64,000 bases of DNA from Patescibacteria group bacterium (GCA_038064495.1 JBBTSZ010000004.1:5363-69362); one strand, 5' to 3'. Positions 1 to 48,931 are shown, counted from the first letter of the stretch. Notes: a model not told the origin generated them from the letters alone. Made by a program: numbers and translations.

Positions 1-6
1 CTCACT

Positions 7-1860
7 ATGAAACGAATGACAAGGAACCGCTTTATCTATAGTGTTTTTCTCGGATGTATTTTGTTGCTTCCGTCCTACGATGCGCACGCGGCAATGCTTC
101 AAACCCAATGGGCGAGTTCCTGTCCAGCAGGTTGGGTTTCAACGGGAATTACCGATGATAACTTTGATTCATATCATCATCTCGGCGAGGGTTTTGTACA
201 AGGCGCAATTGTTCAGCTCTGCATCAAGTCTGATGATGCAAGCATAACTCTCTTTTCTGAATGGAATGCAGGCGCAACCTGTTCAACTGACTATTCATTC
301 ATGAATTTGTATGATGACCTTGGCGACACGTCTCAATCGAGCGATCTACCGTCGCTTCACGACACAAACGAAAATAGTTATTTGCCAAGTGGCAGTAATG
401 ATAACCACTGGTGTCTGAAAGCAACTGGAGACAGCTCGACGAGCATAGTGCCTCTTTGGCGTGTCTGGAATAGTTCAAACACAGATGGACCTGGTTGCCA
501 ATCGGATGAGACAGTGATTATGGACGGAATTAATAGCGTATTCAATCTTAATCACGCAGTTCACACAGGAGCGAACGAATCCTCACTTTGTTTAAAGATT
601 GTCAGTGACGGGGCCTGTGGAAGTGCAAACGGTGTTGAAGTATCATCAGCTCCAAGCACTGATTTGTGTCTTGTGGGAACAGCAAGTGCCGTGAGTGGAA
701 CAGGACCATGGACATGGAACTGTACTGGAATAAATGGTGGAGTGACGGCATCTTGTTCCGCACCTAAAACAGCAAGTGTCCCGCCTACGGATCCTATAGT
801 TACCGGTACGGCGACCTACACAAATACCTCATATCCTTTCACGTTTACCTCAACTGATCCAAATGGCGACCCACTATGGTATGGCATTGACTGGAATGGA
901 GATGGAACAACCGACGAACTAGCTCCTGCTTCAGGAACTGTTCCAAGCGGAACACCACAAAGCGTAAACCACCAATGGGCTGTTGCCGGAGACTATGTAT
1001 TTAAAGTGCGTGCTATACGTGGAGCTTCCATAGAATCTGCATGGGTCTCAACCTCTATTCATGTTGAAGATCAAAGTGCTCTGCCAGTAGCGTTGATTAC
1101 TGCATCTCCCGAGACTGTTGCGCCAGGAAATTCAACTACGCTTACCTATACCTGTTCCGGCGGAACGTCAGCATTCATCAATAATGGCGTAGGCACTGTT
1201 GTTCCTGCAACAGGTGGAAGTACGGTAGTAACTCCTGCTCAGACAACAACGTATGAACTTATCTGCACAAACGCAGCAGGTTCAGCTGAAGACTCTGTTG
1301 TTGTGACCGTCGCTCCTCCGGGTTCGTTATCATGTACCGTATCGAATCAAAATCCTGAAGTCGGAGAGCTGATATCGTATACCGTCACTCCTTCGAGTGG
1401 TGCTGCTGGTCCCTACACCTGGGATGACTCAAATGGAGGAACGTACGGAACCGGAAATAAAGCACTTCGTACCATGGAAGCGATAGGAATCTATGCCATG
1501 AGTGTGCAGGGAATGAATGCACCCGAGGCATTCTGTCCGCAGGTAACGGTGGGAGCTAACTCCTGTAGCCAACCTTCTTCAGGCACGATTACTGCAACAC
1601 CAAGTCGGGTAAATCCTGGTGGTAGTACGGTTATCGCGTGGACTCTGAATAGAGGAGTTGGCGTTGCCTGCCACGTGACTGGTCCAGGACTTTCAGTAGA
1701 TATACCAATTCAAGCAACATGCGAAGGACCAATTCCTGTGTATGAAGATAATTCCTCTCCACAAACCATTACTGCACAATCTACCTACGTCATCACTTGT
1801 GATAGTGTTCAAGTCGCGCGTAAGACAGTAAACGTCATACCAGCAGTCAATGAGTTCTAG
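7..1860 (+). CDS. Secreted Cys/Thr-rich surface protein, paralog A (Ig-like repeats, conserved C-terminal module)
   Basis: ATG start; signal peptide MKRMTRNRFIYSVFLGCILLLPSYDAHAA; many Cys; repeated about 80 aa units (SL/ASxxAxP..TxxYxLxCTN); C-terminal about 180 aa homologous to the C-termini of the 2891 and 5726 proteins, ending VNVIPAVNEF. Confidence 0.75.
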   Translation: MKRMTRNRFIYSVFLGCILLLPSYDAHAAMLQTQWASSCPAGWVSTGITDDNFDSYHHLGEGFVQGAIVQLCIKSDDASITLFSEWNAGATCSTDYSFMNLYDDLGDTSQSSDLPSLHDTNENSYLPSGSNDNHWCLKATGDSSTSIVPLWRVWNSSNTDGPGCQSDETVIMDGINSVFNLNHAVHTGANESSLCLKIVSDGACGSANGVEVSSAPSTDLCLVGTASAVSGTGPWTWNCTGINGGVTASCSAPKTASVPPTDPIVTGTATYTNTSYPFTFTSTDPNGDPLWYGIDWNGDGTTDELAPASGTVPSGTPQSVNHQWAVAGDYVFKVRAIRGASIESAWVSTSIHVEDQSALPVALITASPETVAPGNSTTLTYTCSGGTSAFINNGVGTVVPATGGSTVVTPAQTTTYELICTNAAGSAEDSVVVTVAPPGSLSCTVSNQNPEVGELISYTVTPSSGAAGPYTWDDSNGGTYGTGNKALRTMEAIGIYAMSVQGMNAPEAFCPQVTVGANSCSQPSSGTITATPSRVNPGGSTVIAWTLNRGVGVACHVTGPGLSVDIPIQATCEGPIPVYEDNSSPQTITAQSTYVITCDSVQVARKTVNVIPAVNEF

Positions 1861-1923
1861 TCACAGGACGTAGAATAGGGGATAAGCTACGTTCGCACGG
1901 TAGACACTCGCTACAATACCTAC

Positions 1924-2904
1924 ATGCCTCCTGAACAACCACAAGAAAATACCGCCTACGAACAACAGGAAGAAAGTTTGTGGAAAAAGCAGAAAATAGC
2001 GGTTGTGTGTGGGGCTCTCGCCACACTCGTGGTGCTTGCACTGTTTTTCTTCGAGTTCAAGTCACGCCTGATACTACCAGGTGACAACATTGTTATCTCA
2101 GCCGGTTACTTTCGAGTGAGTCCGTTGTATATCGTCAACAAAGCGACAACAACACCAGTGCTCGTCAGTTACGGTGGAGTCGAGAAGAAAGCATTTGATA
2201 TGCTTATACTCAGTGATGGCTCCAAACTTTATTCTCTTCGTGAAGAGAGTGATGTACCGTCTTTAAATATCTACCGGGTGGATATCGAAGGTACCGTTAC
2301 ACAATTAACAAACAGCCCGACAGTGAAATTCAATATTTCAGCAGATCCTTCCGAGACGCATATTATTTACGAAGAAATGGTTGCCAAAGACGACCTGGAG
2401 ATATCTACTACTTCTTCGTGGGATATACAGCAACTTGATTTAAACACGCGTGCTGTTGAGCACATAACAAGTGGCGTGCAACCACGATATATACGCTCAG
2501 GTGCTCTTTTGGTCGGTCAAAAGAATGGAGTAGTCCTCTACCACCCCGAGAATCAGTCACGCAAGAGTGCGAGTTCCACCCCGGTGCTTTCTTCCAAAGT
2601 ATATTCACTCTATGCGGTGAGCGCAGAGGGAGAACACGTCGCTGCCTACAACACCAAAACAGGCGCAGTAGATGTATTTGACGTTACGGTGGCAGGGACA
2701 CTTTCCTATGCTTACTCGAGCAAGCCTGAGCACCAACCCTCCAATATCAGCTTCAGTGACGGAGAGCCAGTCTCAGTAGAATCAACCCCGTCTCCTCGTG
2801 GAGTCGTGTATACGGTAACCCGCTATAGCGTAAGCCGTACCGAATGGAACATTACTGGTCCGCAAGGACTTATAGCCCAGCGACTCATATATGCATCACA
2901 TTAA
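1924..2904 (+). CDS. Single-pass membrane protein with predicted beta-rich (TolB/PD40-like) ectodomain, paralog 1
   Basis: Short charged N-terminus then TM IAVVCGALATLVVLALFFF; remainder beta-strand-rich; paralog of 4780..5733; stop overlaps start of next gene by 14 nt. Confidence 0.6.
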   Translation: MPPEQPQENTAYEQQEESLWKKQKIAVVCGALATLVVLALFFFEFKSRLILPGDNIVISAGYFRVSPLYIVNKATTTPVLVSYGGVEKKAFDMLILSDGSKLYSLREESDVPSLNIYRVDIEGTVTQLTNSPTVKFNISADPSETHIIYEEMVAKDDLEISTTSSWDIQQLDLNTRAVEHITSGVQPRYIRSGALLVGQKNGVVLYHPENQSRKSASSTPVLSSKVYSLYAVSAEGEHVAAYNTKTGAVDVFDVTVAGTLSYAYSSKPEHQPSNISFSDGEPVSVESTPSPRGVVYTVTRYSVSRTEWNITGPQGLIAQRLIYASH

Positions 2905-4714
2905 AAGACCACTCTTTTTCATAAGTTTTATTCTCCTCGTTACTGCGCCGGGGCAGGCGTATGCGTTTTCCTACACCCAAGTACACACACTGTGGCAGGA
3001 CCCCGCCTACGTTTCAAACAATGCTCCAGACTACCTTGGTCCAACCTTCCCAGGATGGGGCTTGTTTCCTTTTTTCGCTGACCCGGTAGGACCTTTAGGG
3101 ACATATCCGACCTATGAAGCTATGTGTGACTCGTTTGCCACGGCGCAAGGCTACACGAACACCACTGACTTTTATTGTGTCTACGATGCTCAAATGAGTA
3201 GTTCTAGTTTCGGAACACCGTGTTTTGGCACTGCATGCTCACCGGGCGTAGGAACCATCAACATTTACAATGGCTTTGTTAAATTGTATACAAATCCACC
3301 GACACAGACATCCTATGCAACAATCAGTGCACAGCTTACTGCTCTCTGGACCACGTGGCTTAGCAATGTAGGTCTTGGCATACTCCCGAATCCGCTCCCA
3401 ACCAACCCAGACGTCTGTGACCGGTCAGAAGTATTTAGTGGTCTTATACCGCCGCTTGGATTCAACCCTCCTAACTCAATTCCATTCTACGACAGGTGCA
3501 ATATTTATCATCATGTAGGAATGCCTTCGAGTGTACCCAGTGCTTCGCTTTCCGCTACACCCCCAACAGTAACAGCAGGAAGTAGTGCATTGCTTACGTA
3601 CACCTGTAGTAATGGCGCCACCTCAGCAACCATTGATAATGGTGTCGGGTCAGTTACTCCCGCGGCAGGAGGGAGTGTGCCGGTGACACCAGGCTCTACC
3701 ACCACCTATAGCCTTGTTTGTACAAACGCAAATGGCGCAAGTGTTCCAGCCGTTACAACCGTAACGGTTATCCCTCTCCCAACGCTGCCGGACTTGACTA
3801 CCGGAGCTATCTCACCAACCACTGCAACCGCAGGGCAGTCCACGAGTCTTTCCGCGCCGGTATCAAACACGGGTAATGGGGCAACTGGAGTAGTCTTTAC
3901 TGACCTGTTCCAAAGCGCCACTGACTCATCGGGTAGTAACGCAACCGATATCGGTACGTATCCGAGTATTGCACTCCCTGCAAGCATTGGTAACCTCGCA
4001 CTCCTTTCCTATACCTTCCCGACGGCAGGAACCTACTACCTTCGTGCGTGTGCTGACAAATCATCTAGTGGAAGCCCCGGAGTTATTTCTGAGTCTAATG
4101 CCCTTGGTACCGCAGAAACCAACAACTGTGGCCCATGGACAGCCGTTACGGTTGCTTCTGCGGGAGTACCGAGTGTTTCCTGCACCCCCTCAAATGCAAA
4201 CCCACCAGTTGGCGGAACCGTCATCTATACCGCAACAGTCGGTGGAGGAGCGGGAGCGCCCTTTACGTGGAATCCGTCACTTCCATCAGCTTGTACTGCA
4301 AGTACGGGAAGTACCATCTCGTGTACCTTCACGACGGCAGGCCTCTACGCTATGAATGTGTCTGCTACAGGAGTCGCAGGCTCAGTACCATGTTCTCCAA
4401 ATCCTATTCAAGTTGGTGCCCCATCGTGTGCGGTGCCAGCGAATGCAACACTGACGCCAAGTATGAATCGTGTTCGACAGGGAACCGGCACGACCATTAG
4501 TTACAACGTCACTGGTGGCATCAACACCTCGTGCACTATCACGGGTCCCGGAGCTCCCGGCACCATCAACGCAAATGCCTGTGCCCTGAATCCATCATCA
4601 GGTTCCTTCTCAACTGGACCACTGAATTCACAAGCTACCTACATCATTAGGTGTGACGGCACCGAGCTCTCTCGCACTATCGTGAATATCATTCCGAACT
4701 TCAAAGAGTTCTAG
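2891..4714 (+). CDS. Secreted Cys/Thr-rich surface protein, paralog B (Ig-like repeat + CARDB-like domain + conserved C-terminal module)
   Basis: Signal peptide (…LLVTAPGQAYA); CARDB-like hallmark DLTTGAISPT…ESNALGTAETNNCGPWTAVTV; last about 310 aa about 70-80% identical to the 5726 protein; ends TIVNIIPNFKEF. Confidence 0.8.
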   Translation: MHHIKRPLFFISFILLVTAPGQAYAFSYTQVHTLWQDPAYVSNNAPDYLGPTFPGWGLFPFFADPVGPLGTYPTYEAMCDSFATAQGYTNTTDFYCVYDAQMSSSSFGTPCFGTACSPGVGTINIYNGFVKLYTNPPTQTSYATISAQLTALWTTWLSNVGLGILPNPLPTNPDVCDRSEVFSGLIPPLGFNPPNSIPFYDRCNIYHHVGMPSSVPSASLSATPPTVTAGSSALLTYTCSNGATSATIDNGVGSVTPAAGGSVPVTPGSTTTYSLVCTNANGASVPAVTTVTVIPLPTLPDLTTGAISPTTATAGQSTSLSAPVSNTGNGATGVVFTDLFQSATDSSGSNATDIGTYPSIALPASIGNLALLSYTFPTAGTYYLRACADKSSSGSPGVISESNALGTAETNNCGPWTAVTVASAGVPSVSCTPSNANPPVGGTVIYTATVGGGAGAPFTWNPSLPSACTASTGSTISCTFTTAGLYAMNVSATGVAGSVPCSPNPIQVGAPSCAVPANATLTPSMNRVRQGTGTTISYNVTGGINTSCTITGPGAPGTINANACALNPSSGSFSTGPLNSQATYIIRCDGTELSRTIVNIIPNFKEF

Positions 4715-4779
4715 ACAAAAATCTACTCTGGATTGGGGATTAAAAAAACGACAGCCTGAATCAAGGCTATACTAGACGC

Positions 4780-5733
4780 ATGCCTCCGATACAAAGCATC
4801 CCGGGAATGCCAGCGACCCCATCTTTTACAAATCACCCCAGACACTGGAATAAAAAGATATGGGCACTCGTCTTTGGTGCGATAGCTACTGTTGTAGTAC
4901 TTACGATGTTTTTCCTTGAATGGAAATCAGGACGCCTCCACTTCTCCGAACCAACAATCCTGCTAAGTCCGTCGGAAGCGCCTTTGTTTCAGGCTCTCAC
5001 CATCAATTTAGGTGGAAAAACGACCTCGCCAATTTTGGTAGAAGGCCTTGGTACCGCAGTCGTTACTGATATGGCTCCAAACAAACAGAGAAACTATTAC
5101 TTGATAGCAAACCAATCACTCACTGAATCAAATCTTTATTCTTCAGATTCCCATAACCCGCAAGCAGGCCTGAGTCAGAGAACGTTCTCGCACACCACCA
5201 AATTCAGTCTCTCGTATGACCCGCAATCAGGCGCAGTCGCGTATGTATCGAAAAAGGGTAGTGAACCTGGCGTAATAACGCTTCTCCTGCAGGGCACGAC
5301 AACAGAGAAGTTGCTGGGAGAGGGATCTAATCCAGAGTTTCTGAAAGGAGGATTTTTTGTAACGTATCAAAAAGGTAACGAAGTCCTTTCAGTAAACGTG
5401 CACACAAAAGAGACACACACCCTGTTTACTATTCCCGAGGGAGGCACGTATGCTGTAGACGGAGAAGGACTGCGAGCAGTTGTGTATGATCCGACAACAC
5501 GCACTCTCCAGTATTTCTCACTTGAGGGCATGACATCTGCAAGCTTTACGACGTTTAAGAAAGAAGAAGGAGTAGCTATCCAGAGACGTATTCTAGGAAT
5601 TTCTGGAGACACGCTTGCAAGTCTTATTCAAGCCGAGGAAGGTATCTCTATTACCCTTGGGAAAGACAAACCAGTCTTCTTCGGAGGTGTTACAGCACAC
5701 GAACACTCACGACTGACCATCTATCATGACTAA
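4780..5733 (+). CDS. Single-pass membrane protein with predicted beta-rich ectodomain, paralog 2
   Basis: Same architecture as 1924..2904 (N-terminal tail, TM IWALVFGAIATVVVLTMFFLEW, beta-rich ectodomain); N-terminal regions align; stop overlaps next gene start by 8 nt (ATGACTAA). Confidence 0.6.
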   Translation: MPPIQSIPGMPATPSFTNHPRHWNKKIWALVFGAIATVVVLTMFFLEWKSGRLHFSEPTILLSPSEAPLFQALTINLGGKTTSPILVEGLGTAVVTDMAPNKQRNYYLIANQSLTESNLYSSDSHNPQAGLSQRTFSHTTKFSLSYDPQSGAVAYVSKKGSEPGVITLLLQGTTTEKLLGEGSNPEFLKGGFFVTYQKGNEVLSVNVHTKETHTLFTIPEGGTYAVDGEGLRAVVYDPTTRTLQYFSLEGMTSASFTTFKKEEGVAIQRRILGISGDTLASLIQAEEGISITLGKDKPVFFGGVTAHEHSRLTIYHD

Positions 5734-8116
5734 TACTTCACAACTTCCCGTACTCGGTTTACTTACTTCGGCTGTGGTGATAGGTATATCGTTGTTTGCA
5801 TCGCATGCTGTATACGCGCAAACATACACAGCCGGTTCTTGTGGTGCGACAATAGTATCGAGCATAAATGCTTTTGACTGTAGCTCAAACTATTTGACGT
5901 GTGCGCCTGACCAATTAGGACAAGATCGCATACCTGCAACTAAATTACGAGAGTGTCCCGCGGGAAGCGGCGATTTCTATCTAATTGATCAGCCAGGAAG
6001 ATGTATTGCTGATCCTGTATGCGCCTTCGGAGCACCGTCTGCAAGCATAACTGCGAATCCGGCCTCTATTGTGCGTGGGAATAGCAGTGCTGTTTCCTGG
6101 AGCTCAGCAAATACAACCTCGTGTACGAGTACCAGCTTCTCCACTGGTAATGCTACGAGCGGCACGATAGCGGTATCGCCCACACAAACGACAAGCTACG
6201 ACGTTACCTGTACGGGTCCCGGCGGTTCAACGGGTATAAAAACTGTCACTGTCACCGTCACCGCTCCCGTGTTTGATGCTAGTTGTTCAGTTAATCCAAC
6301 GTCTGCACAAATTGGAGAGACGGTTACGTGGAGTGCCAGCGCATGGAATGGAACCGCACCTTATACATTTTCTTGGATTGGACAAATTATAGAAGGACTC
6401 ACAGGATCCAGTGCATCTGTGTCCTATTCAACTTCAGGTGTAAAGACAGGATCGATACAGGTAACAGACTCAACATCTAATGGAACAAGTGTCAGTCTAA
6501 CCAATAACGACAACAAAATTTGTACGGGACCTGTAATTGCATCAAACATTACGCCCGGACTTCAAGAAGACGGAGGAACACAGTCGGCTATGCAAAATGA
6601 GGCGTACTCCTTTACTAGAGGAGGTTTTCGTGGAGGTATTGGTATCTTCTATGACCAATCATACAGTGCCACCTATGCTACAGTTAAGGCAAATCCTCAG
6701 AACTACTGTATAGATGTAAAACTCTCACAACGGTGTAATCCTCCTCCTGGTTGGGAAGGTTGTAATTGGAGTTTCGATATAGATATTCACCAAGGAACGG
6801 GTCTACGAGACCCTCAAGCGAGCGATCAAGGTCCGTATGTACCGAATCAAAACGGATTTGGTACTTGGAATCAAGCGCGTTTCTTTGGTGCAGTACTTGG
6901 AACACCAGTCTCAGGAGCTCAGACAATTAACCGTTCCTGTGTAAACTCAGTTACCGTTGCCGCCGCCGCAACAACAGCAAATCTTTCTGCAAATCCTATC
7001 TCCATTACGCAAGGCAACTCCTCAACGCTTACATGGTCATCCACAAATGCCACATCCTGTACGAGTCCTGACTTCAATACCGGTGGAGCAGTCTCGGGAA
7101 GTATTTCCGTAAGTCCCTCAGCTGACACTATGTACACAGTAGACTGCACTGGTTCTGGTGCTCCTGCATCAAGTTCGGTAACGGTATCAGTCACCGCGGC
7201 TCAATCTGATCTAACTGCTGCAGCGGTTTCTCCTGCCAGTGCAATAGCCGGTACGCTCGTTACACTTTCAGCACTTGTTTCTAATTCTGGAGTTGCAGGA
7301 ACTGGAGTAGGTTTCACAGACCTGTTTCAGCGGGCCACAGACTCCTCTGGTAGTAACGCGACTGACATTGGTACCTATGCGAATACGGCACTCGCCTCTA
7401 GTGGAAATACAAGTGCAACCATGAATTACTCCTTCCCATCAGCAGGCACCTGGTATGTGCGTGCTTGTGCCGATAAAGCTTCAGCTGGCGACAGCGGCGC
7501 CATCAACGAATCAAATGAAGGAAATAACTGCGGTCCCTGGACCGCCATCACGGTTGCTGCTGCAGGAGTGCCTGCGGTTTCTTGCACCCCTTCAAACGCA
7601 AATCCTCCCGTCGGTGGAACCGTCACGTATACGGCAACCCCAAGTGGTGGGGCGGGAGCACCATTCACGTGGAATCCATCACTCCCGTCTGCCTGTACAC
7701 CAAGTACCTCAAGCACGATTTCCTGTACCTTCACAATCGCAGGCCAGTACGCTATGAATGTGTCTGCTACAGGGGTCGCCGGCTCCGTACCATGCTCACC
7801 GAATCCTATCCAAGTGGGTGCTGCGGCTTGTGGTGTTCCTGCCAGCGCAACCCTGACTCCGGTTAACAACCGTGTTCGTAAGGGCACTGGAACCAGCATC
7901 AATTACAACGTGACTGGTGGCATCAACACCTCCTGTACTATCATGGGTCCAGGAGCTCCAGGCACCATCAGTGCAAACGCCTGTACTCTCAATCCATCTT
8001 CAGGCTCTTTCTCCACCGGCAATCTCTCTGCACAAGCAACCTACATCATTACGTGTGATGGTGTTGAACTCAAACGTACGGTGGTGAACATCATTCCGAA
8101 CTTTGTTGAGTATTAA
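5726..8116 (+). CDS. Secreted Cys/Thr-rich surface protein, paralog C (two Ig-like repeats, CARDB-like domain, conserved C-terminal module)
   Basis: Signal peptide (…ISLFASHAVYA); two repeats SASITANPASI…/ANLSANPISI…; CARDB-like DLTAAAVSPA…ESNEGNNCGPWTAITV; C-terminal module shared with 2891 protein; ends TVVNIIPNFVEY. Confidence 0.8.
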   Translation: MTNTSQLPVLGLLTSAVVIGISLFASHAVYAQTYTAGSCGATIVSSINAFDCSSNYLTCAPDQLGQDRIPATKLRECPAGSGDFYLIDQPGRCIADPVCAFGAPSASITANPASIVRGNSSAVSWSSANTTSCTSTSFSTGNATSGTIAVSPTQTTSYDVTCTGPGGSTGIKTVTVTVTAPVFDASCSVNPTSAQIGETVTWSASAWNGTAPYTFSWIGQIIEGLTGSSASVSYSTSGVKTGSIQVTDSTSNGTSVSLTNNDNKICTGPVIASNITPGLQEDGGTQSAMQNEAYSFTRGGFRGGIGIFYDQSYSATYATVKANPQNYCIDVKLSQRCNPPPGWEGCNWSFDIDIHQGTGLRDPQASDQGPYVPNQNGFGTWNQARFFGAVLGTPVSGAQTINRSCVNSVTVAAAATTANLSANPISITQGNSSTLTWSSTNATSCTSPDFNTGGAVSGSISVSPSADTMYTVDCTGSGAPASSSVTVSVTAAQSDLTAAAVSPASAIAGTLVTLSALVSNSGVAGTGVGFTDLFQRATDSSGSNATDIGTYANTALASSGNTSATMNYSFPSAGTWYVRACADKASAGDSGAINESNEGNNCGPWTAITVAAAGVPAVSCTPSNANPPVGGTVTYTATPSGGAGAPFTWNPSLPSACTPSTSSTISCTFTIAGQYAMNVSATGVAGSVPCSPNPIQVGAAACGVPASATLTPVNNRVRKGTGTSINYNVTGGINTSCTIMGPGAPGTISANACTLNPSSGSFSTGNLSAQATYIITCDGVELKRTVVNIIPNFVEY

Positions 8117-8164
8117 GTAGTCCACAGTTTGTTTGAGGTGTGATATACGTGCTTTACTACGAGT

Positions 8165-8356
8165 ATGTCTCGAGGAATGATACTTATCATGCTTGGTATT
8201 TTGATTGCACTCACTCCCTTTGTTGGGCTCCCCTCAGCAATCTTGGTATTCCTTCTCCCACTTCTTGGAGCGATCGTTGCGTTTTTCGGGGGACTCATTC
8301 GAATAGAAGCAACATCGAGACCGATTCAACCAGAACACATTGTTGGTACGAAGTAG
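8165..8356 (+). CDS. Small two-TM membrane protein (hypothetical)
   Basis: 63 aa, two hydrophobic helices (ILIMLGILIALTPFVGL / ILVFLLPLLGAIVAFFGGL); sits between surface-protein block and ATPase; no homology call possible. Confidence 0.35.
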   Translation: MSRGMILIMLGILIALTPFVGLPSAILVFLLPLLGAIVAFFGGLIRIEATSRPIQPEHIVGTK

Positions 8357-8412
8357 CCACTCACACTGCTCTCACGTGAGCTCAAAACCATCAGTATCGT
8401 ATACTGTAGTGT

Positions 8413-10125
8413 ATGGATGAAAATCAGGATCGCGTCACCTATTTTGCAGCGACTGATGCCAGAGGAAGAAAACAACCCTTCGGTATAAAAATGAAGGACC
8501 GTTCCCGTCACATGTATGTGATAGGAAAGACCGGCATGGGTAAATCAACTCTGCTTGAAAATATGGCGATTCAAGATATCCGTAATGGGGAAGGCATGGC
8601 CTTTATTGACCCACACGGAAGTGCAGTGGAAACACTTCTTGACTATATTCCTGCAAACCGTGTGAATGATATTGTCTACTTCGCTCCGTTTGATTTGGAA
8701 CGCCCGATAGCATTTAACGTGATGGAGGATGTGGGCTACGACAAGCGACACCTCGTGGTGTCGGGCCTCATGGCTACGTTTAAAAAGATCTGGGTAGATG
8801 CGTGGTCTGCTCGTATGGAGTACATTCTTTCAAACACACTGCTGGCACTTCTTGAGTACCCAGGCTCCACCTTGCTCGGGGTGAATCGCATGTACACCGA
8901 CAAGGGGTACCGCAAGAAGGTGATTGATAACGTGAAGGACCCCGTGGTGAAAGACTTCTGGGTGAAAGAATTTAATACGTACACCGATCGGTACACCCAG
9001 GAGGCGACACCGGCTATTCAAAACAAAATTGGGCAGTTCACGAGCAATCCACTCATTCGTAACATCATTGGTCAGCCACACTCCTCGTTTGATATTCGCG
9101 AGTTGATGGACAAAAGAAAGATTCTCATCATCAATCTTTCAAAGGGATTAGTGGGAGACACGAACATGAAGCTTCTTGGTTCCATGATTACCACGCGCAT
9201 CTTCCTTGGGGCTATGAGTCGTGCAAACCTGCCTCCCCACGAACTCGTGAAGGCACCTAATTTTTATTTTTACGTAGATGAATTCCAGAACTTCGCAAAC
9301 GAGACCTTCGCGGAAATTTTGTCTGAGGCTCGTAAATATCGTCTGAATCTTATTATTGCGCATCAATATGTGGAACAGATGGAAGAAGAGGTCGCGGCAG
9401 CAGTCTTCGGGAACGTGGGCACGACGGTCGCGTTCCGAGTTGGACCGTTTGATGCGGAAAAACTGGAAGTGGTGTTTGCTCCAGAATTTACCCCCGAGGA
9501 CCTCGTCAACCTCGGTTTCGCGCAGATTTACCTGAGTCTCATGATTGATGGCATTGGCTCCCGGCCTTTTTCTGCAGTTACCATTCCTCCGATAGAGCCA
9601 CCGAAGCGCTCGTATCGTCCTGAAGTGATTGAAGCATCGCGCGCACAATTTAGCGGAGCACGTGAGTCAGTGGAGGGGTTGATTTACGAGGAGCTTGCTA
9701 TGAGTGAGGCTCTTCCGCCTGAACCACCTGCAAAAAAGACCTACCCACCAAAGCGAGTAGAAAATCGAGAACCCAGACTAGAACAACCGAGGCGTGAAGA
9801 GCGACCACCTGAACGACCTCGTCCAGAGGCTCGTAGACCTGAGCGTGAAAAACGTTCTGAACCTCCGCAACAGAGCGTACAAGACCTGAAAGCTATTTTA
9901 CGAGCCACTCTTGAAAAGAGTACTAAAGCAAAAGACATAACACGAGAAGAAAGAACAGGAACCCTCAAAAGCGCACTTTCAGGTGTCGTTCAAAATTCTC
10001 CCGAGCTGAAAAAAGAAGTATCACCGGCACCTTCGCTGCGTGCACATGAATCAAAACCTAAGGCGGAATCTGTGTTTGAGATTCCAGAAGAAGTATTACG
10101 CGACCTTTTCAAAAAGGAACTCTAG
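8413..10125 (+). CDS. Soluble P-loop ATPase of FtsK/HerA/VirD4 superfamily, type IV coupling protein (TraD/TraG/VirD4)-like, with charged low-complexity C-terminal tail
   Basis: Walker A GKTGMGKST; FIDPHGS about 25 aa downstream (T4CP-like DPxG); Walker B YFYVDEFQNF; IIAHQ motif; no N-terminal TM; tail rich in PRREERPPERPRPEARRPEREKR. Confidence 0.65.
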   Translation: MDENQDRVTYFAATDARGRKQPFGIKMKDRSRHMYVIGKTGMGKSTLLENMAIQDIRNGEGMAFIDPHGSAVETLLDYIPANRVNDIVYFAPFDLERPIAFNVMEDVGYDKRHLVVSGLMATFKKIWVDAWSARMEYILSNTLLALLEYPGSTLLGVNRMYTDKGYRKKVIDNVKDPVVKDFWVKEFNTYTDRYTQEATPAIQNKIGQFTSNPLIRNIIGQPHSSFDIRELMDKRKILIINLSKGLVGDTNMKLLGSMITTRIFLGAMSRANLPPHELVKAPNFYFYVDEFQNFANETFAEILSEARKYRLNLIIAHQYVEQMEEEVAAAVFGNVGTTVAFRVGPFDAEKLEVVFAPEFTPEDLVNLGFAQIYLSLMIDGIGSRPFSAVTIPPIEPPKRSYRPEVIEASRAQFSGARESVEGLIYEELAMSEALPPEPPAKKTYPPKRVENREPRLEQPRREERPPERPRPEARRPEREKRSEPPQQSVQDLKAILRATLEKSTKAKDITREERTGTLKSALSGVVQNSPELKKEVSPAPSLRAHESKPKAESVFEIPEEVLRDLFKKEL

Positions 10126-10214
10126 ATTTGAAACTTTTTTGAGGGTTCTTGAGTACTAGTAAGTACAGAACATTACGAACGAATAACCACCGAATGATAT
10201 GGTGAATGCACTCT

Positions 10215-10254
10215 TGGCCCCTCCGCTCTAGCAACCACTAGAGCGGAGGGGCCA
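10215..10254. promoter_or_regulatory. Perfect GC-rich 17-bp-stem inverted repeat (hairpin) between ATPase gene and glycan operon; terminator-like but no U-tract
   Basis: tGGCCCCTCCGCTCTAG-caacca-CTAGAGCGGAGGGGCCa read directly from sequence. Confidence 0.5.
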
Positions 10255-10303
10255 CCTGTTGCTCGTCCTCTGGTACTCTCGTATCCTACAGACAACTACT
10301 GAT

Positions 10304-11542
10304 ATGAAGCGTATACTCATCTTCTCGTTAAACTACTATCCCGACTTTGTTGGGGGTGCTGAGGTAGCAATTAAGGAGATTACCGACCGTCTGCCGCAGG
10401 AGGAATTTGAATTCCACGTCATAACGCTTCGTTTTAATAGAAACCTTCCAAAGGAAGAAAAAATCGGGAATGTGTCCGTACATCGTATCGGTTTCAGTCT
10501 ACGGGGCGCTACCATACACGACCTTGGTCGGTATCCACTCAAACTCAATAAATACTGGTTTCAGTTCGCAGCAGCGTGGCATGCGCTACGCCTCCACCGG
10601 AAGATCCCCTGTGACGCAATCTGGGCCATGATGGCTCACTCGAGCGCTATTCCAGCAGGACTTTTTAAACGCCTTCACCCGAGTGTCCCGTACCTCCTTA
10701 CCCTTCAGGAAGGAGACCCCCCCGAGTATATAGAACAACAGATGCGAACTGTGTGGCCACTGTTCATCCGAGGAGTGAGAAGCGCTGACTTCATTCAATC
10801 CATCTCAATCTATCTTCAAGCGTGGGGAAGGCGACTACGACCAACCGGGGAGTCCGTTGTTATACCAAACGGGGTTGATATACAGCTGTTTTCTCAAAAA
10901 CCAAACACACCAGCACTCACCGCGTATAAGAACACACTTGGTAAGAAAAAAACGGACATCTATCTCGTGACTACCTCACGACTCGTATTTAAAAACGGCA
11001 TCGATACGGTTATTCGAGCACTTCCAAAACTTCAAGAACACATCTCGTTTCTTATTTATGGAAACGGACCTGACGAGAAGAAGCTACGAATGCTCGTAGA
11101 AGAAATCGGTGTCACATCGCGCGTTCGGTTCATGGGTTACATCTCGCACGCGGACATGCCGCTTGCGCTTAGTGCTTCAGATATTTTTATTCGACCATCA
11201 CGCTCAGAAGGTATGGGCAATTCTTTTATAGAAGCTATGGCAACAGGTGTGCCGGTCATTGCAACTCGTGAAGGTGGCATCCCTGACTTTCTTTTTGATT
11301 CTAAGAACCATCCGGAACAACCTCAGACCGGCTGGTCAGTGAATACCGACGATCCTGATGATGTTGCCCGTATTGTTAATGCCATACTCGCTTCTCCTGA
11401 CACAGTTCGTACCGTGACTCAAAACGCACAAACGCTTGTGACAGAGAAATACGACTGGAACACGGTCGCACGCTCTATCCAGGAACTCTTAGAGAACCTA
11501 ACAAAGGTCTCCGCAATGGGAGGCGAGAACAGGGTACAATAG
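10304..11542 (+). CDS. Glycosyltransferase family 4 (GT-B, group 1)
   Basis: N-terminal ILIFSLNYYPDFVGGAEV; C-terminal EGMGNSFIEAMATGVPVIAT (E-x7-E-like); ATG at 10304 preferred over upstream TTG at 10259. Confidence 0.75.
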   Translation: MKRILIFSLNYYPDFVGGAEVAIKEITDRLPQEEFEFHVITLRFNRNLPKEEKIGNVSVHRIGFSLRGATIHDLGRYPLKLNKYWFQFAAAWHALRLHRKIPCDAIWAMMAHSSAIPAGLFKRLHPSVPYLLTLQEGDPPEYIEQQMRTVWPLFIRGVRSADFIQSISIYLQAWGRRLRPTGESVVIPNGVDIQLFSQKPNTPALTAYKNTLGKKKTDIYLVTTSRLVFKNGIDTVIRALPKLQEHISFLIYGNGPDEKKLRMLVEEIGVTSRVRFMGYISHADMPLALSASDIFIRPSRSEGMGNSFIEAMATGVPVIATREGGIPDFLFDSKNHPEQPQTGWSVNTDDPDDVARIVNAILASPDTVRTVTQNAQTLVTEKYDWNTVARSIQELLENLTKVSAMGGENRVQ

Positions 11543-11547
11543 CCATC

Positions 11548-12645
11548 ATGCGGGTTCTGATAGCCACACCCCTATATCCACCCGAGCTTGGTGGACCAGC
11601 AACCTACTCAAAAATCCTTGAAGAAGGATTACCTGTCCGTGACATAGCCGTTACACTCCTTGCCTTTAGCGAAGTGCGTCATCAGCCGAAAATTTTTCGA
11701 CACCTGCTCTATTTTTGGAAAGCCCTTCAGCTCGCACGCGCTGTTGATGTTGTGCTCGCACTTGACCCAGTCTCAGTCGGTCTGCCAGCGTACCTTGCGG
11801 CACGGCTGGCAGGGAAGAAATTTGTCGTAAAAGTGGTGGGGGACTACGCCTGGGAACAGGGACGTCAACGGTTCGGCATCTGGCTTCCGCTTGATGAATT
11901 TGTCCGCACCAAGGAAGTTCCTTTGCAGGTATTGCTACGACGTACGGTGCAAGAGTTTGTGACACGCAGAGCCCTCCGGGTGATTGTCCCGAGTAACTAC
12001 CTGAAACACATCATACAGTTCTGGGGTATTCCTCAAGAGAAAGTCAGCGTTATTCATAATGCCGTTGCAAGTACGAAGCCGAGTACGGTTCCAAGTGTGG
12101 TCGCCGACTCAGGAACACCAAGAATTATTAGTGTCGGGCGACTTGTTCCGTGGAAAGGCATGCACGGACTCATTAGTGCAATGCCTGAAATACGAACGCA
12201 CGTTCCAACCGCGGAGCTTATCATTGTGGGTGAAGGACCTGACCAGGAACAGCTTGAACGATTTGCTGAAGCGCGTGTTCCAGGAGGTGTGGTGTTTACC
12301 GGAGCCCTTCCTCATGACGAAACCTTGGCAGCAATCGCCGCATCAGATGTTGTGGTACTTAATTCAACCTACGAAGGACTCTCACATCTCCTCATTGAGG
12401 CCCTAACTCAGGGGTCTGCCGTAGTGGCAACAAAGGCTGGCGGAAACCCAGAACTGATTGAATCTGAGAAAAATGGTCTCCTCATTTCTATTGGCGACCC
12501 TGAAGGTCTTGCTCGCGCCTGTGTTCGTCTCCTTACCGACACTGCCTTTGCCGGGAGGCTTAAGATGGAAGCAAAAAAATCAATGCAGGACTTTAGTCAG
12601 GAGCGGATGCTCTTGGCTACGGAAACCCTTCTGCGAGGCGTATGA
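11548..12645 (+). CDS. Glycosyltransferase family 4
   Basis: MRVLIATPLYPPELGGPATY; C-terminal EGLSHLLIEALTQGSAVVAT. Confidence 0.75.
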   Translation: MRVLIATPLYPPELGGPATYSKILEEGLPVRDIAVTLLAFSEVRHQPKIFRHLLYFWKALQLARAVDVVLALDPVSVGLPAYLAARLAGKKFVVKVVGDYAWEQGRQRFGIWLPLDEFVRTKEVPLQVLLRRTVQEFVTRRALRVIVPSNYLKHIIQFWGIPQEKVSVIHNAVASTKPSTVPSVVADSGTPRIISVGRLVPWKGMHGLISAMPEIRTHVPTAELIIVGEGPDQEQLERFAEARVPGGVVFTGALPHDETLAAIAASDVVVLNSTYEGLSHLLIEALTQGSAVVATKAGGNPELIESEKNGLLISIGDPEGLARACVRLLTDTAFAGRLKMEAKKSMQDFSQERMLLATETLLRGV

Positions 12646-13760
12646 ATGTCCTCTTCATCTCAAACGACCCCTCCCTTTGTCTTCCTGAGAGTTCTGCTCG
12701 CACTCGCCTGAAAGGGTATGCCCGCACAATCGGCACGTTGCATGTGCTCACTCCTGCAAAAGAGAATCTTGAAGTAACTGATGAGAATCTCACCATTCAT
12801 GGTGTTCGTGGAAGCGCGGTTACTACATACCGTTCGCGTCTCAAGCGTGGACGTGCCCTCGTGCAGGATGCAGAGATAGAGATAGTCTCAGCACAGGACC
12901 CATTTGAAAACGGATGGCTTGCTCGCGCAATCACTCGTGGCACGAAAGCAAAACTCCATCTACAACTCCATACCGACTTCCTCTCACCCTGGTTTGTACG
13001 AACAGGGTCACTGAGTATGTCATTCAAAAATCGCGTGCGCAGAATGATTGCTGACATATTACTGCCGCAAGCAGACGGTATCCGTGTGGTTTCCGAGCGT
13101 ATCAAGACATCACTCGCTACTCGGTACGCTAATCGTATTCAATCGGTAACCGTACTCCCGATTGCGGTGAGCACTACGGTTCCAGAACGTGCGGAACTTC
13201 CACCGCATTCGTTTCAAACCGTCCTCGTAACCATCGGTAGACTTGAAGCAGAAAAGCATATAGACGATATCTTGCGGGCACTTTCAAAAACACCATCCTC
13301 CGTCGGTCTCTTTGTTATTGGAGAGGGGAGACTCCGTGCTTCTCTTGTTAGGCGTACCCGTGAGTTGCATATATCTGACCGAGTAAGCTTTCTGGGTGCT
13401 CAGACTAACGCCTGGGGACTTATGCAAAGTGCGGATGCCTATATTCAAGCAAGTGTATATGAAGGCTATGGGATGACGCTCGTAGAGGCGGCACTTTCCG
13501 GGGTGTCGATTATCACCACCGACGTCGGGATTGTGGGGGAGGTGCTTACGCCAAAGAAGGATGTTGTGGCAGTATCTCCTGGCGATATCAAGGGCCTTAC
13601 AAGTGCCATTACTGGCCTCACAGGGCCCCTGACAGAGCGAGAGACACGTAGAGCGAACGCTCGCAACTCAGTACAGTCTCATCTGAGCGCGTATCAAAAT
13701 CTAGCCAGTTTAATCACGAGCGACCTTTCGAGGCTTCTTGCTGGTTCTACAAGAGCATGA
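12642..13760 (+). CDS. Glycosyltransferase family 4 / group 1
   Basis: C-terminal EGYGMTLVEAALSGVSIITTDVG; 4-nt ATGA overlap with upstream gene. Confidence 0.7.
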   Translation: MNVLFISNDPSLCLPESSARTRLKGYARTIGTLHVLTPAKENLEVTDENLTIHGVRGSAVTTYRSRLKRGRALVQDAEIEIVSAQDPFENGWLARAITRGTKAKLHLQLHTDFLSPWFVRTGSLSMSFKNRVRRMIADILLPQADGIRVVSERIKTSLATRYANRIQSVTVLPIAVSTTVPERAELPPHSFQTVLVTIGRLEAEKHIDDILRALSKTPSSVGLFVIGEGRLRASLVRRTRELHISDRVSFLGAQTNAWGLMQSADAYIQASVYEGYGMTLVEAALSGVSIITTDVGIVGEVLTPKKDVVAVSPGDIKGLTSAITGLTGPLTERETRRANARNSVQSHLSAYQNLASLITSDLSRLLAGSTRA

Positions 13761-14272
13761 CCTACTTCGTCGACTTTGACCGAACCCTTTTTGATACCGA
13801 CCGCTTCCAGAAGGACTACGCGGAGCAACTTTCCCTTGCCGAGGAAGAACCGGGAGTTATTCACCGGGCGCTCGTGAAACTTTTGGCGGAGGGAAATCTC
13901 ACCTTTACGCAAGGAGAACTTACTCCCTACCTCTATGCAGACGCAGCAGAATTCTTACGAGGACTCGGGAACGAAGCTACTATTATCACTCGTGGGGATA
14001 TCGCGTTTCAAACAGCAAAAGTAAAAAGTGCGCTTGTCGGCATTCCGCGCCTCAGTGTGTTTTACACAGGTGAAAACAGCAAGGCTGCATACCTTGCTCC
14101 ACGGATTGATGCCTACCGAGATCCGGTGCTTGTTGACGATAAGCCTCTTGAGCTTGAGATACTGGCAACTACCTGTCCGACACTCCGTTTGTACGAAATG
14201 CGTAGAGATGGAGAGAAAGGGGACGGGCGGTGGTCTATCGTACAGTCACTCGGAGAGCTACCTTCAACATGA
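13757..14272 (+). CDS. HAD-superfamily hydrolase (sugar-phosphate phosphatase, possibly GmhB-like)
   Basis: HAD motif I FVDFDRTLFDT (DxDxT) at N-terminus; 171 aa. Confidence 0.5.
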   Translation: MTYFVDFDRTLFDTDRFQKDYAEQLSLAEEEPGVIHRALVKLLAEGNLTFTQGELTPYLYADAAEFLRGLGNEATIITRGDIAFQTAKVKSALVGIPRLSVFYTGENSKAAYLAPRIDAYRDPVLVDDKPLELEILATTCPTLRLYEMRRDGEKGDGRWSIVQSLGELPST

Positions 14273-15312: not shown

Positions 15313-15314
15313 CT

Positions 15315-15950
15315 ATGGACGCTCCACAAACAGACAAATCGCATTACGCTATCGGCTCCTACGGATTTGAGGGCAGATTTGTGAGTTATTTTCACCAGCT
15401 ACACGAAGTGCTTTCACTGAAACCAAGAACCATTCTTGAAGTTGGGGTAGGGGACCGCGTGTTCGGCGATTTTATTAGAAACAACACAGGTGTGGGCTAT
15501 ACCTCAGTTGATATCGCTCCCGATCTCCATCCGGACGTGCTTGGAAGTGTGACAAAACTTCCATTTGCCGACAACTCGTTTGATGTGGTGTGTGCCTTTG
15601 AAGTCCTAGAACACCTTCCGTTTGAGGAGTTTGATGTCGCACTTTCTGAACTTGCTCGTGTTGCCAAGCGCGCCGTTATCCTTTCACTTCCGCATTTTGG
15701 TCCTATGCTCTCGTTCTCTCTAAAGGTTCCGTTCATTCCTCAGCTTCAGTGCGCAGTGAAGCTCCCGGTGTCTCGCACACATGCATTCAACGGTCAGCAT
15801 TATTGGGAAATTGGGAAGCGAGGATATCCACTCAGCCTCATTCGCACCAAGCTACACACGATCGGCGTACGTACCAAAGATTTCATTCCGTTCAACAGTC
15901 CATATCATCATTTCTTTACTATTGATGTTTCCAAACAACGCGGCGTATGA
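15315..15950 (+). CDS. Class I SAM-dependent methyltransferase
   Basis: Motif I ILEVGVGDRVFGDF; motif post-I region CAFEVLEHL. Confidence 0.7.
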   Translation: MDAPQTDKSHYAIGSYGFEGRFVSYFHQLHEVLSLKPRTILEVGVGDRVFGDFIRNNTGVGYTSVDIAPDLHPDVLGSVTKLPFADNSFDVVCAFEVLEHLPFEEFDVALSELARVAKRAVILSLPHFGPMLSFSLKVPFIPQLQCAVKLPVSRTHAFNGQHYWEIGKRGYPLSLIRTKLHTIGVRTKDFIPFNSPYHHFFTIDVSKQRGV

Positions 15951-19172: not shown

Positions 19173-19207
19173 TTGCGCTCCTTCGCCTAAATGGATAGCA
19201 TCAACCT

Positions 19208-20434: not shown

Positions 20435-20435
20435 G

Positions 20436-48925: not shown

Positions 48926-48931
48926 TTTTCC

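Follow-up and report, generated by a model that had tools for sequence, protein, structure and literature searches.

The window analysed here, a stretch of 64,000 nucleotides from a Patescibacteria bacterium, carries three large ORFs, A, B and C, which lie where the earlier note had placed them and are interspersed with genes for two membrane proteins, M1 and M2 (Table 1). The N-termini of A, B and C, read directly from the sequence, are signal peptide-like, and all three are likely to be Sec-exported, multi-Ig-domain cell-surface proteins of this bacterium, Cys-rich and presumably disulfide-bonded. The PKD-like domain of A (aa 256-350) was recognised by its match to 4xed; no Pfam family was found in A, which is also without a CARDB domain. 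The head of B matches no PDB sequence, and tblastn against 75 related loci found nothing like it; the composite head of C consists of Ig/PKD-like domains and a novel domain of about 170 aa. Database searches including Pfam gave no function for any of the heads.

Table 1. Features of the A/B/C cluster and its surroundings, with coordinates counted from the first nucleotide of the window
Feature	Coordinates	Strand	Description or basis
Protein A (617 aa)	7..1860	+	ORF; signal peptide, novel Cys-rich head, PKD-like domain, Ig-like domains, EF-tailed terminal Ig
Terminal Ig-like domain of A with tail VNVIPAVNEF	1585..1857	+	Alignments; tail-less HMM
M1 (326 aa), predicted single-pass membrane protein with beta-propeller ectodomain	1924..2904	+	ORF; M2 paralog; jackhmmer seed
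Protein B (607 aa)	2891..4714	+	Signal peptide, novel head of ~215 aa, Ig-like, CARDB, Ig, EF-tailed terminal Ig
Constant module of B (CARDB, Ig, terminal Ig, tail VNIIPNFKEF)	3791..4711	+	76% aa identical to C module
M2 (317 aa), predicted N-terminal TM helix (aa 23-49) and beta-propeller ectodomain	4780..5733	+	AF2, Foldseek
Protein C (796 aa)	5726..8116	+	Signal peptide, composite head, Ig, CARDB, Ig, EF-type terminal domain (VNIIPNFVEY)
Head segment of C, exchanged recently between lineages	6290..7009	+	93-96% nt identity to groundwater MAG
Constant module of C	7190..8113	+	AF2 and Foldseek
Extreme C-terminal tail of C (P-N-F-V-E-Y), stop codon directly after	8096..8113	+	
p55, hydrophobic peptide (55 aa, apparently membrane) lying between C and the ATPase gene	8189..8356	+	
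Orphan VirD4/TraD-like coupling-protein ATPase (570 aa)	8413..10125	+	Pfam, NCBIfam

A variable head joined to a constant C-terminal module, as the earlier note had described it, is the true architecture of these proteins. B and C share 66% identity over 388 aa (BLASTP, E 3e-159), and their last 308 aa are 76% identical, in keeping with the 70-80% claimed for about 310 aa. The heads are unrelated as stated, but the homology runs about 70 aa further upstream than had been thought, taking in a further, less similar Ig-like domain, and the proposed start of the module at 3790 is out of frame, the in-frame start being 3791. At the DNA level, a 24-nt identical run occurs exactly twice (4348-4371 and 7750-7773; 0 occurrences expected by chance), and there is a 300-nt direct repeat that is 79% identical (4121-4420 vs 7523-7822). 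The CARDB domain of the shared module passes the Pfam PF07705 cut-off of 22.7 bits in both proteins (B aa 300-412, 26.7 bits; C aa 494-602, 28.6 bits). A does share its C-terminal end with B and C (about 190-210 aa at 36-37% identity), but not, as supposed, only the final 180 or so residues, and a further Ig-like domain is common to A (352-430) and B (208-285) at 46% identity. The AF2 model of the C module (pLDDT 90.2) contains three confident beta-sandwich domains, the CARDB domain (module aa 1-123), a middle Ig domain (129-209) and a terminal Ig domain (219-302). Foldseek matches it to generic Ig tandems and to the CARDB structure 3idu (TMt 0.75).

A specific feature of the proteins is the end of the last domain. 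The tails VNVIPAVNEF, VNIIPNFKEF and VNIIPNFVEY had been read correctly for A, B and C, and all three fit a single type in which the domain comes last and a V-N-[VI]-[IV] strand is followed by about six residues and E-[FY]-stop; among the 378 stop-to-stop ORFs of at least 60 aa in the window only these three end in E[FYW]. A scan of 596 Gb of DNA with the degenerate pattern V-N-[VI]-[VI]-P-x-F-x-E-F-stop yielded 79 matches, spread over 70 stretches of which about 65 are Patescibacteria records; by our own estimate about 4 matches would be expected by chance, and 3 of those obtained are junk ORFs of 10-15 aa, in line with that chance level. With a tail-less HMM, the EF end is found in 72 of 74 copies of the domain that lie C-terminally, including 11 of the 13 that do not fit the DNA pattern, and [EN]F closes all 14 full-length homologs that a search with the 308-aa module recovered. 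Across the 74 terminal copies V(-10) and N(-9) are each conserved in 73, P(-6) in 69, F(-4) in 66, E(-2) in 73 and F(-1) in 72, which places E(-2) and F(-1), after which the protein stops, among the most conserved positions of the end-domain. Two cysteines, C39 and C79, are invariant. The earlier note had staked its reading on the motif recurring in homologs elsewhere, and pattern scan, HMM and homologs all find it conserved there.

The same note had allowed that the shared region may be just a generic Ig fold. This is true of the fold itself: the last domain of A, B and C matches a profile of about 85 aa with two conserved cysteines, a repeat family for which no Pfam name was found. At E<=1e-3 this family takes in 7028 proteins, many of which repeat the domain 5-44 times. 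It is not true of the terminal VN...EF version: the top matches of the profile are multi-repeat proteins from many lineages and phyla without the tail, and internal copies of the same domain end in VTV or LTV and are likewise tail-less. The proteins that carry the tail differ widely in their N-terminal parts, which span 190 to >1000 aa and begin with either a signal peptide or a TM anchor. About 65 species-level genomes have the end-domain, frequently more than once, and most of the relatives recovered bear the label Paceibacterota or Parcubacteria. Attached to a wide variety of proteins across these 65 or so related genomes and reshuffled by recombination, the EF-tailed end-domain is a real, undescribed and lineage-specific module whose function is inferred. 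Its signature is a C-terminal Ig-like domain with the last strand and free end V-N-[VI]-[IV]-P-x-F-x-E-F-COOH.

The earlier note had taken the genes for products of an old duplication without recent gene conversion. The part of that proposal which holds is purifying selection, with omega of about 0.07-0.16 across the shared module and 0.07-0.12 over the last 230 or so residues in a codon comparison. The ortholog of C in another genome (L008) is about 80% aa identical in the head and only 37-45% in the module, whereas B and C of the window genome are 77-88% identical in that module region. Likewise, in 9 of 29 within-genome paralog pairs from other genomes the end-domains are at least 78% identical behind unrelated heads. 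The module has therefore been exchanged or homogenised within genomes, and the homogenised paralogs include pairs on different contigs (L009/L078, L027/L073). The head segment 6290..7009 of C matches a groundwater MAG at 93-96% nucleotide identity; the Mur ligase genes of that MAG and the window genome are about 68% nt identical, and the segment has evidently been exchanged between lineages recently. The exchange or homogenisation of the B/C module, with a pS of 0.53-0.72, is not recent. The genes are thus mosaics, in which heads and C-terminal modules have different histories and the end-domains are homogenised among the paralogs of one genome, so that duplication without conversion is unsupported.

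M1 and M2 are paralogs (27% identity, E 3e-14) without a Pfam match. The 3' end of M1 overlaps the start of B by 14 nt and that of M2 the start of C by 8 nt, and M2 orthologs with the same 8-nt overlap lie upstream of C orthologs in L008 and L006. The AF2 model of M2 has a pLDDT of 65 overall and of 73-92 for aa 100-260; with this pLDDT-65 model the top Foldseek matches are Kelch and TolB propellers (E ~1e-7, TM 0.38-0.54) and prolyl-endopeptidase propellers, on which the predicted ectodomain superposes. Several of the matched PDB propellers bind a short peptide, as in Kelch-peptide and TolB-colicin peptide complexes. Unlike TolB, M is N-terminally membrane-anchored, does not have TolB's N-terminal domain and has no Tol-Pal context. 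A jackhmmer family seeded with M1 accounts for 15 of 43 ORFs upstream of tagged genes in other genomes, M being missing upstream of about two thirds of them, and in two genomes (L009, L037) M is fused to the tagged protein, the L009 fusion passing Pfam PD40 (37.7 bits vs a cut-off of 20.9). B and C are each coupled in translation to the gene just upstream, which encodes a predicted membrane-anchored propeller of the TolB/PD40-like kind, a pairing that recurs elsewhere. M1 and M2 are 23-27% identical vs about 80% for the modules of B and C, and therefore M does not co-evolve with the module; gene order, fusions and divergence patterns suggest that the membrane partner goes with the head end and not specifically with the C-terminal module.

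Downstream of C, the ATPase ORF is a type IV coupling protein (TrwB_AAD_bind 36.6 bits, cut-off 20.5; TraG-D_C 29.2 bits, cut-off 22), and the order C, p55, ATPase recurs in L057. No other T4SS genes are found among the annotated ORFs, which cover only part of the window, and orphan coupling proteins are common in Patescibacteria (PMC12102498). The ATPase is a neighbour of the A/B/C cassette. Across 73 loci, the genes found repeatedly nearby are M, a coiled-coil SLT_2 lytic transglycosylase and the housekeeping genes rpmE, prfA, rpsB and tsf.

The reading we favour, with about as much doubt as conviction, is that A, B and C are surface adhesins subject to recombination, in which a shared module acts in docking or as a stalk. 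The constant CARDB-Ig-Ig module would serve as stalk and common docking piece, and by analogy with dockerin-cohesin pairs or the T9SS C-terminal domain, its terminal domain and tail would bind one shared, genome-specific envelope component. The variable heads, swapped by recombination, would determine what is bound, such as host cells or surfaces. An M propeller and its cognate protein may form a membrane-anchored complex, more likely via the head end. Proteins anchored by an N-terminal TM segment or fused to an M domain keep the tail all the same, and it therefore cannot simply be a membrane anchor.

The retention of the tail in such proteins would also suit a purely structural role, which we consider unlikely. 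Here VN...P.F.EF would close the last Ig domain as a cap, with the Phe residues packing on the sandwich and the Glu and the carboxylate forming an internal salt bridge; there would be no trans-acting receptor, the module would be a passive stalk, and gene conversion between tandem paralogs would produce the within-genome similarity as a side effect. In other respects the domain is a generic repeat. Asn(-9), which lies in the last beta-strand, is invariant only in terminal copies and so co-occurs with the tail, and this too would suit a tail packed onto its own domain. The confidence of the AF2 model drops to a pLDDT of about 75 at the last six residues, PNFVEY, which is not full disorder, but DSSP assigns them as coil. 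Moreover, the 72 proteins end exactly after EF while the rest of the domain is about 35% identical, tail-like ends (PPIFFEF, KPIFIEN, QPIFIED, KPVFVEF) also follow non-homologous sequence (P0012, P0019, P0119, P0073), and tandem conversion fits poorly with homogenisation between paralogs on different contigs.

It is less probable still that the terminal domain and tail are an export or sorting signal, by which Sec-exported cargo would reach a Patescibacteria machine dedicated to taking it across the wall or S-layer or attaching it there. Such a signal would resemble the T9SS C-terminal domain or a sortase signal in function, and might afterwards be cleaved or ligated. A lineage-restricted C-terminal Ig-like domain on diverse cargo in multiple copies per genome would be in line with this, as would the SLT_2 transglycosylase that adjoins the cassette in 19 loci; specialised enzymes of this kind typically accompany envelope-spanning machines, according to background cited in PMC12102498. 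However, neither a candidate machine nor a processing enzyme adjoins the cassette consistently, the genes that recur nearby are the housekeeping genes, and no SLT_2 lies near the cluster of the window genome. There is also no TM helix after the motif and no Pfam or NCBIfam match to a known sorting domain. A polymer, in which each tail would fit a groove on the following subunit, or the M propeller of an adjacent complex, so that a fibre or lattice (S-layer, appendage) is built, is highly improbable: Foldseek matches of the C module include Sap, SbsB, mastigoneme and invasin, the end-domains of one genome are kept alike and the fused M-Ig proteins with their tails would allow head-to-tail chaining, but all three Ig domains of the module are predicted complete with no strand missing, and for components of a lattice the proteins differ widely in copy number, length and head.

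Returning to adhesins with a common docking module, a more far-reaching form of this reading is possible, if doubtful. The VN..P.F.EF-COOH end-domain may be the cargo tag of an undescribed, Patescibacteria-specific surface-display system, with diverse and rapidly recombining host-recognition heads, a genome-specific docking domain with its free carboxylate, a common envelope receptor, and TolB-like propellers as assembly or anchoring partners. If so, it would be a counterpart, in monoderm, ultra-small cells, of the logic of the T9SS C-terminal domain or of dockerins, and the hypervariable locus, which keeps one place on the chromosome (typically SLT_2 - cassette - rpmE - prfA), would be the determinant of host range in Paceibacteria.

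Several known systems share features with the EF-tailed proteins. LPXTG/sortase, PEP-CTERM/exosortase and MYXO-CTERM proteins also bear a short conserved C-terminal motif on surface proteins with a lineage-specific distribution. In such tripartite signals a TM helix and a basic tail come after the motif, and a transpeptidase or protease removes the signal. A sortase- or exosortase-type signal (LPXTG, PEP-CTERM, GlyGly-CTERM) was rejected, A, B, C and all homologs stopping 0 residues after ...EF with no hydrophobic segment. The beta-signal of outer-membrane proteins was rejected as well: a terminal F/Y is present, but the protein is a chain of Ig sandwiches and not a barrel, and the hydrophobicity of the tail does not alternate to the end. 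A hypervariable module of Thermococcales likewise has large secreted Ig-domain proteins at its core, together with accompanying genes and a content that varies, and its authors read the loci as self/non-self or conflict-related; it differs in its archaeal lineage and partner genes, and, compared by description only, no EF tail appears in the relevant passages of that account (PMC8416519).

The C-terminal domain of the T9SS (TIGR04183/Por_Secre_tail) in Bacteroidota is also a C-terminal Ig-like beta-sandwich of about 80-100 aa that is carried by many unrelated secreted or surface proteins of one lineage only, in several copies per genome. The resemblance would be functional only, as A, B and C do not match the T9SS models (TIGR04183, Pfam) at E<=0.1 in Pfam and NCBIfam searches, and the conserved feature here is the free ...EF-COOH end. 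Published accounts describe Patescibacteria as monoderm-like and without a T9SS. Compared with the dockerin-cohesin pairs of cellulosomes, the end-domain is an Ig sandwich and not a Ca-binding dockerin, it is non-enzymatic and no cohesin-like partner was found. Both have a constant C-terminal docking module, here putative, on diverse heads, and in both the modules within one genome resemble one another more than they do modules from other genomes, which is what co-evolution with one shared scaffold would lead one to expect.

The tail-bearing terminal Ig domain of proteins A, B and C, three neighbouring secreted multi-Ig-domain proteins with differing heads and a common C-terminal part, is lineage-specific and is carried by diverse secreted or anchored proteins, and the finding is more general than could be seen from the window alone. 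The three genes exist as ORFs where the earlier note had placed them, and the membrane protein genes M1 and M2, located just upstream of B and C, are likewise real ORFs. B and C align with 66% identity over 388 aa (E 3e-159), and their last 308 aa, the module, are 76% identical, as expected from the roughly 70-80% over about 310 aa first noticed. The identical 24-nt run common to both genes occurs exactly twice (0 expected by chance), and the window contains a direct repeat of 300 nt with copies that are 79% identical. A is 36-37% identical to B and C over the last ~190-210 aa, in keeping with a shared final ~180 aa, but the sharing is not restricted to this part since A has an extra Ig-like domain in common with B (46%). 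The proposed CARDB-like domain scores above the Pfam threshold in both B and C and is absent from A in a Pfam search. Of the window's 378 stop-to-stop ORFs of at least 60 aa, A, B and C are the only ones with an E[FYW] ending, and a search of the window found no additional copy of the domain. M1 and M2 are paralogs (27% identity, E 3e-14). A promoter and terminator scan of positions 1-10400 gave no convincing forward-strand signals between the genes, and the operon structure of the cluster is deduced from the overlaps and short gaps alone. The window lies within contig CAYHLG010000004.1 of MAG GCA_964357455.1, and one source lists M2 under the name 'Patescibacteria group bacterium'. Just upstream of the window start, the same contig (L001) encodes a 456-aa secreted protein with weak Pfam matches (NPCBM_assoc/BsuPI-like Ig), a homolog of which (38% identity) adjoins tail-bearing genes in the related locus L071.

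Coordinates of the gene cluster, its neighbours and features of related loci
Feature	Record	Position	Strand	Description
A	window	7-1860	+	ORF
M1	window	1924-2904	+	ORF; overlaps B start by 14 nt
B	window	2891-4714	+	ORF
M2	window	4780-5733	+	ORF; overlaps C start by 8 nt
C	window	5726-8116	+	ORF
CARDB	last 308 aa of C	1-123		beta-sandwich (AF2 model)
Ig	last 308 aa of C	129-209		beta-sandwich (AF2 model)
Terminal Ig	last 308 aa of C	219-302		beta-sandwich (AF2 model)
C head segment (C aa 189-428)	window / L006	6290-7009 / 11493-12212 (approximate)		~720 nt
blastn span of C head segment	window / L006	6042-7194 / 11245-12400
p55	window	8189-8356		55-aa hydrophobic peptide
VirD4/TraD-like ATPase	window	8413-10125		orphan
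Surface-glycan cluster	window	~10259-22500 and 48900-55240		GT4/GT9/GT47-like glycosyltransferases, methyltransferases, DegT aminotransferase, ABC exporter
605-aa ORF	window	25493-27310		no Pfam family at E<=1e-5
633-aa ORF	window	36586-38487		no Pfam family at E<=1e-5
456-aa protein	L001	2915-4285		C-terminal TM anchor; overlaps A start by 4 nt
Tagged gene, p55, ATPase	L057	about 3273-4812	-	same order as in window
~195-aa family member	L004	9396-9980		MRTIKK...FTQPAS...
M-propeller fusion	L009	5081-7036
Mini-protein	L078	3865-4437
CxxC protein	L016	1550-2233		227 aa
301-aa tagged protein	L019	389-1294	+
65-aa ORF	L019	2483-2680	+

The C-terminal motif, for which a wider search had been proposed, is kept in homologs whether these are sought by protein search, by DNA pattern or by an HMM lacking the tail. 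The 308-aa module retrieved only 19 proteins from 5.8 billion protein clusters, labelled Patescibacteria in the few sources where a name is given, and the 14 homologs that reach into the last domain all have an [EN]F ending (e.g. ...VNVIPNFQEF, ...VNVVPNFEEF). Scanning one genome per GTDB species (596 Gb) with the degenerate DNA pattern V-N-[VI]-[VI]-P-x-F-x-E-F-stop gave 79 matches in 70 stretches, where by our own estimate about 4 would arise by chance (~38 bits against 1.2e12 positions). About 65 of these stretches belong to Patescibacteria records, namely Paceibacterota or Parcubacteria, Kaiserbacteria, Nomurabacteria, Minisyncoccia and bins labelled Saccharibacteria, although several of the last may reflect loose labelling. 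Three matches are junk ORFs of 10-15 aa from records outside Patescibacteria, and all the real ones carry the same Ig-like domain ahead of the motif (...TQSTYTItC...VNVIPxFxEF). Bona fide EF-tailed genes were also seen on contigs in bins labelled Sulfuricellaceae (L039) and Bacillota (L060), which are most likely mis-binned Patescibacteria. As a control for circularity, the domain HMM was stripped of its last 10 columns and run on 1909 ORFs of 73 loci. Of the 74 ORFs in which it placed the domain at the C-terminus, 72 terminate in EF, and the two exceptions have EY (protein C) and YY; of 13 C-terminal copies that fall outside the DNA pattern, 11 nevertheless end in EF (e.g. VNVSANQLEF, VNVDSGSGEF). 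Across the 74 terminal copies the conserved positions are V(-10) in 73, N(-9) in 73, P(-6) in 69, F(-4) in 66, E(-2) in 73 and F(-1) in 72, and internal copies of the domain end in VTV or LTV without a tail.

The fold of the module is ordinary. An AF2 model of the last 308 aa of C, built from a 17-sequence alignment, has a mean pLDDT of 90.2 and comprises three beta-sandwiches, the last strand being ...TVVNII and the final six residues, PNFVEY, forming a coil of lower confidence (~75). Apart from the CARDB structure 3idu, the Foldseek matches are confined to generic Ig tandems (invasin, filamin, S-layer proteins, complement MG domains). When the last domain and its tail were searched together as one profile, 7028 representatives out of 1.84 billion proteins matched at E<=1e-3. 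The strongest matches are large proteins with many repeats, of other kinds and without the tail, and some terminate in a hydrophobic-plus-Arg-rich sequence. Only 14 of the best 149 of the 7028 matches end in [ED][FYW], 12 of which fit the profile up to their own last residue. The objection that the shared region is merely a generic Ig fold therefore holds for the repeat, which is widespread, but not for the terminal VN...EF version, which is specific. Tail-like ends also follow unrelated sequence in a few proteins (...NPPIFFEF, ...KKPIFIEN, ...QPIFIED, ...KPVFVEF), a hint that the tail could function on its own as a short motif. The end-domain has no match in Pfam or NCBIfam, nor do the heads of A, B and C or M1 and M2, and no description of the domain or its tail was found in these databases or in the literature searched. 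The heads have no sequence relatives in the PDB except for a PKD match in A, and tblastn against 75 related loci gave no match for the B head.

The family shows mosaic and concerted evolution. Codon-level comparison (Nei-Gojobori) of the B and C modules gave pN 0.08-0.26, pS 0.53-0.72 and omega ~0.07-0.16 (0.07-0.12 over the last ~230 aa), which confirms the purifying selection previously suggested, and the two copies are not recent. The accompanying idea of an old duplication rather than gene conversion is contradicted by the mismatch of head and module in the C ortholog of L008 and by paralog pairs in other genomes. In L008 the head (aa 1-482) is 70-83% identical to that of C and the last ~200 aa only 37-45%, whereas B and C are 77-88% identical over the same last ~200 aa; the histories of head and module are in conflict. 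A further C ortholog, on the groundwater MAG contig L006, is 95-98% identical at the aa level and 93-96% at the nt level over C aa 189-428, with flanks of only 27-47% aa identity. Elsewhere the two genomes are diverged (Mur ligase 62% aa and ~68% nt, TP_methylase 76% aa, M2 48% aa), which shows that this head segment has undergone a recent lateral exchange between diverged lineages. When end-domains were compared across the family with the tail left out, median identity was 0.49 for paralogs within a genome versus 0.35 between genomes (Mann-Whitney p = 3e-10), the 99th percentile of the between-genome pairs being 0.625. Nine of 29 within-genome pairs have end-domains that are at least 78% identical, and those heads with enough length for a comparison show no relationship (0.13-0.25); the members of some of the nine pairs sit on different contigs. 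The B/C case is thus a recurrent property of the family, in which modules are exchanged or homogenised within genomes and heads swapped.

A membrane partner with a predicted TolB-like propeller is likewise recurrent. In the AF2 model of M2 (pLDDT 65 overall, 73-92 for aa 100-260) a TM helix spans aa 23-49 and four-stranded blades come after it, and the top Foldseek matches of the model are Kelch, TolB and prolyl-endopeptidase propellers. Orthologs of M2 (61% and 48% identity) immediately precede C orthologs, again with an 8-nt overlap, and 15 of 43 ORFs immediately upstream of tail-bearing genes in independent genomes belong to the M family (jackhmmer). In two genomes an M-like TM-plus-propeller region is fused N-terminally to a tail-bearing Ig protein (L009, 651 aa; L037, 1027 aa), and the L009 fusion scores above the Pfam threshold for PD40. 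That M and the secreted protein are functionally linked is well supported, on the strength of gene order, overlap and fusion. Three features point to M as a putative binder of the head end of its partner: the fusion connects the C-terminus of M to the partner's N-terminus, M1 and M2 are only 23-27% identical whereas the B and C modules are ~80%, and the tail is kept by fused and TM-anchored proteins.

Tail-bearing proteins range from 190 to >1046 aa, most having an N-terminal signal peptide and several a longer TM anchor. The smallest, the 190-aa L078 protein, consists of a TM helix, an acidic linker and the end-domain; it is encoded in the same MAG as the L009 fusion, on a different contig, and the two end-domains are 82% identical and the linkers of both are Gly-rich, acidic and of low complexity. 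A family of ~195-aa proteins with a signal peptide and no Pfam match (L004, L048, L053, L071) is encoded directly upstream of tail-bearing paralogs with heads of 'SGWAWSSTIGWVSFN' repeats. In L019 a 65-aa ORF exactly repeats the last 34 aa of the adjoining tagged protein (...AITQQSLYTLTCQTSGNPVTQTAIVNVVPGFQEF) and looks like a 3' fragment left over from recombination.

In relatives the cassette occupies a fixed chromosomal site, near rpmE (L31; seen in 43 loci), prfA (RF1; 42), rpsB (S2; 34), tsf (EF-Ts; 34), a 137-aa membrane protein (32), a 227-aa membrane-anchored protein with a C-x-x-C motif (26), a coiled-coil SLT_2 lytic transglycosylase (19) and L25 (13). Judging by its motif the 227-aa protein may be a thioredoxin-like disulfide oxidoreductase, a role that would fit Cys-rich secreted proteins. 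Searches of the window found no SLT_2, L31, RF1 or L25; in the genome of the window the cluster instead comes after TP_methylase and the 456-aa protein and is followed by p55 and the ATPase, an order that recurs in L057 with an ATPase that is 82% identical at the aa level. An N-terminal TM region is not apparent in the ATPase, and no VirB4 is found among the annotated ORFs of the window. As orphan VirD4 homologs are common in Patescibacteria, no link to a T4SS is claimed; the T4SS study that reports this also detected no adhesins in the group (PMC12102498). A possible connection with the Mur-ligase and FemAB-like genes located upstream was likewise discarded, as these were seen only in L001 and L006 and do not recur. 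Much of the remaining window encodes surface-glycan biosynthesis, one of the products being a Wzy_C (O-antigen ligase-like) protein of 715 aa that also carries TPR. SecA and GatA/GatB are encoded in the window too. The large glycan cluster, which has many glycosyltransferase genes, may be relevant to the glycosylation or anchoring of surface proteins.

It is proposed that A, B and C are surface-displayed binding proteins in which the heads would supply specificity and the constant module would combine a stalk with a common docking domain to which one shared, genome-specific partner binds. Alternatively, the tail may cap the domain structurally, signal export or attachment, or act as a polymerisation strand. 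A sortase- or exosortase-type signal is ruled out as no residues follow the motif, an OMP beta-signal as there is no barrel, and an intramolecular isopeptide or ester cross-link via the invariant Asn and Glu as the alignment has no conserved Lys partner.

Patescibacteria account for a large share of bacterial diversity, and the few that have been cultivated live attached to host cells. To our knowledge almost nothing is known about host recognition or attachment in Paceibacteria-type lineages, and a terminal Ig domain ending in ...EF, often beside a TolB-like membrane protein, offers a simple sequence handle for listing their surface proteins. If the tail is a docking or sorting signal, it would represent a new kind of protein-targeting tag and point to an unknown receptor in a poorly understood cell envelope. 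The swapping of heads and homogenisation of docking modules at these loci is reminiscent of contact and recognition proteins elsewhere, and the family, whose mechanism is putative, resembles a known kind of arrangement in which a C-terminal docking or sorting domain is carried by modular surface proteins.
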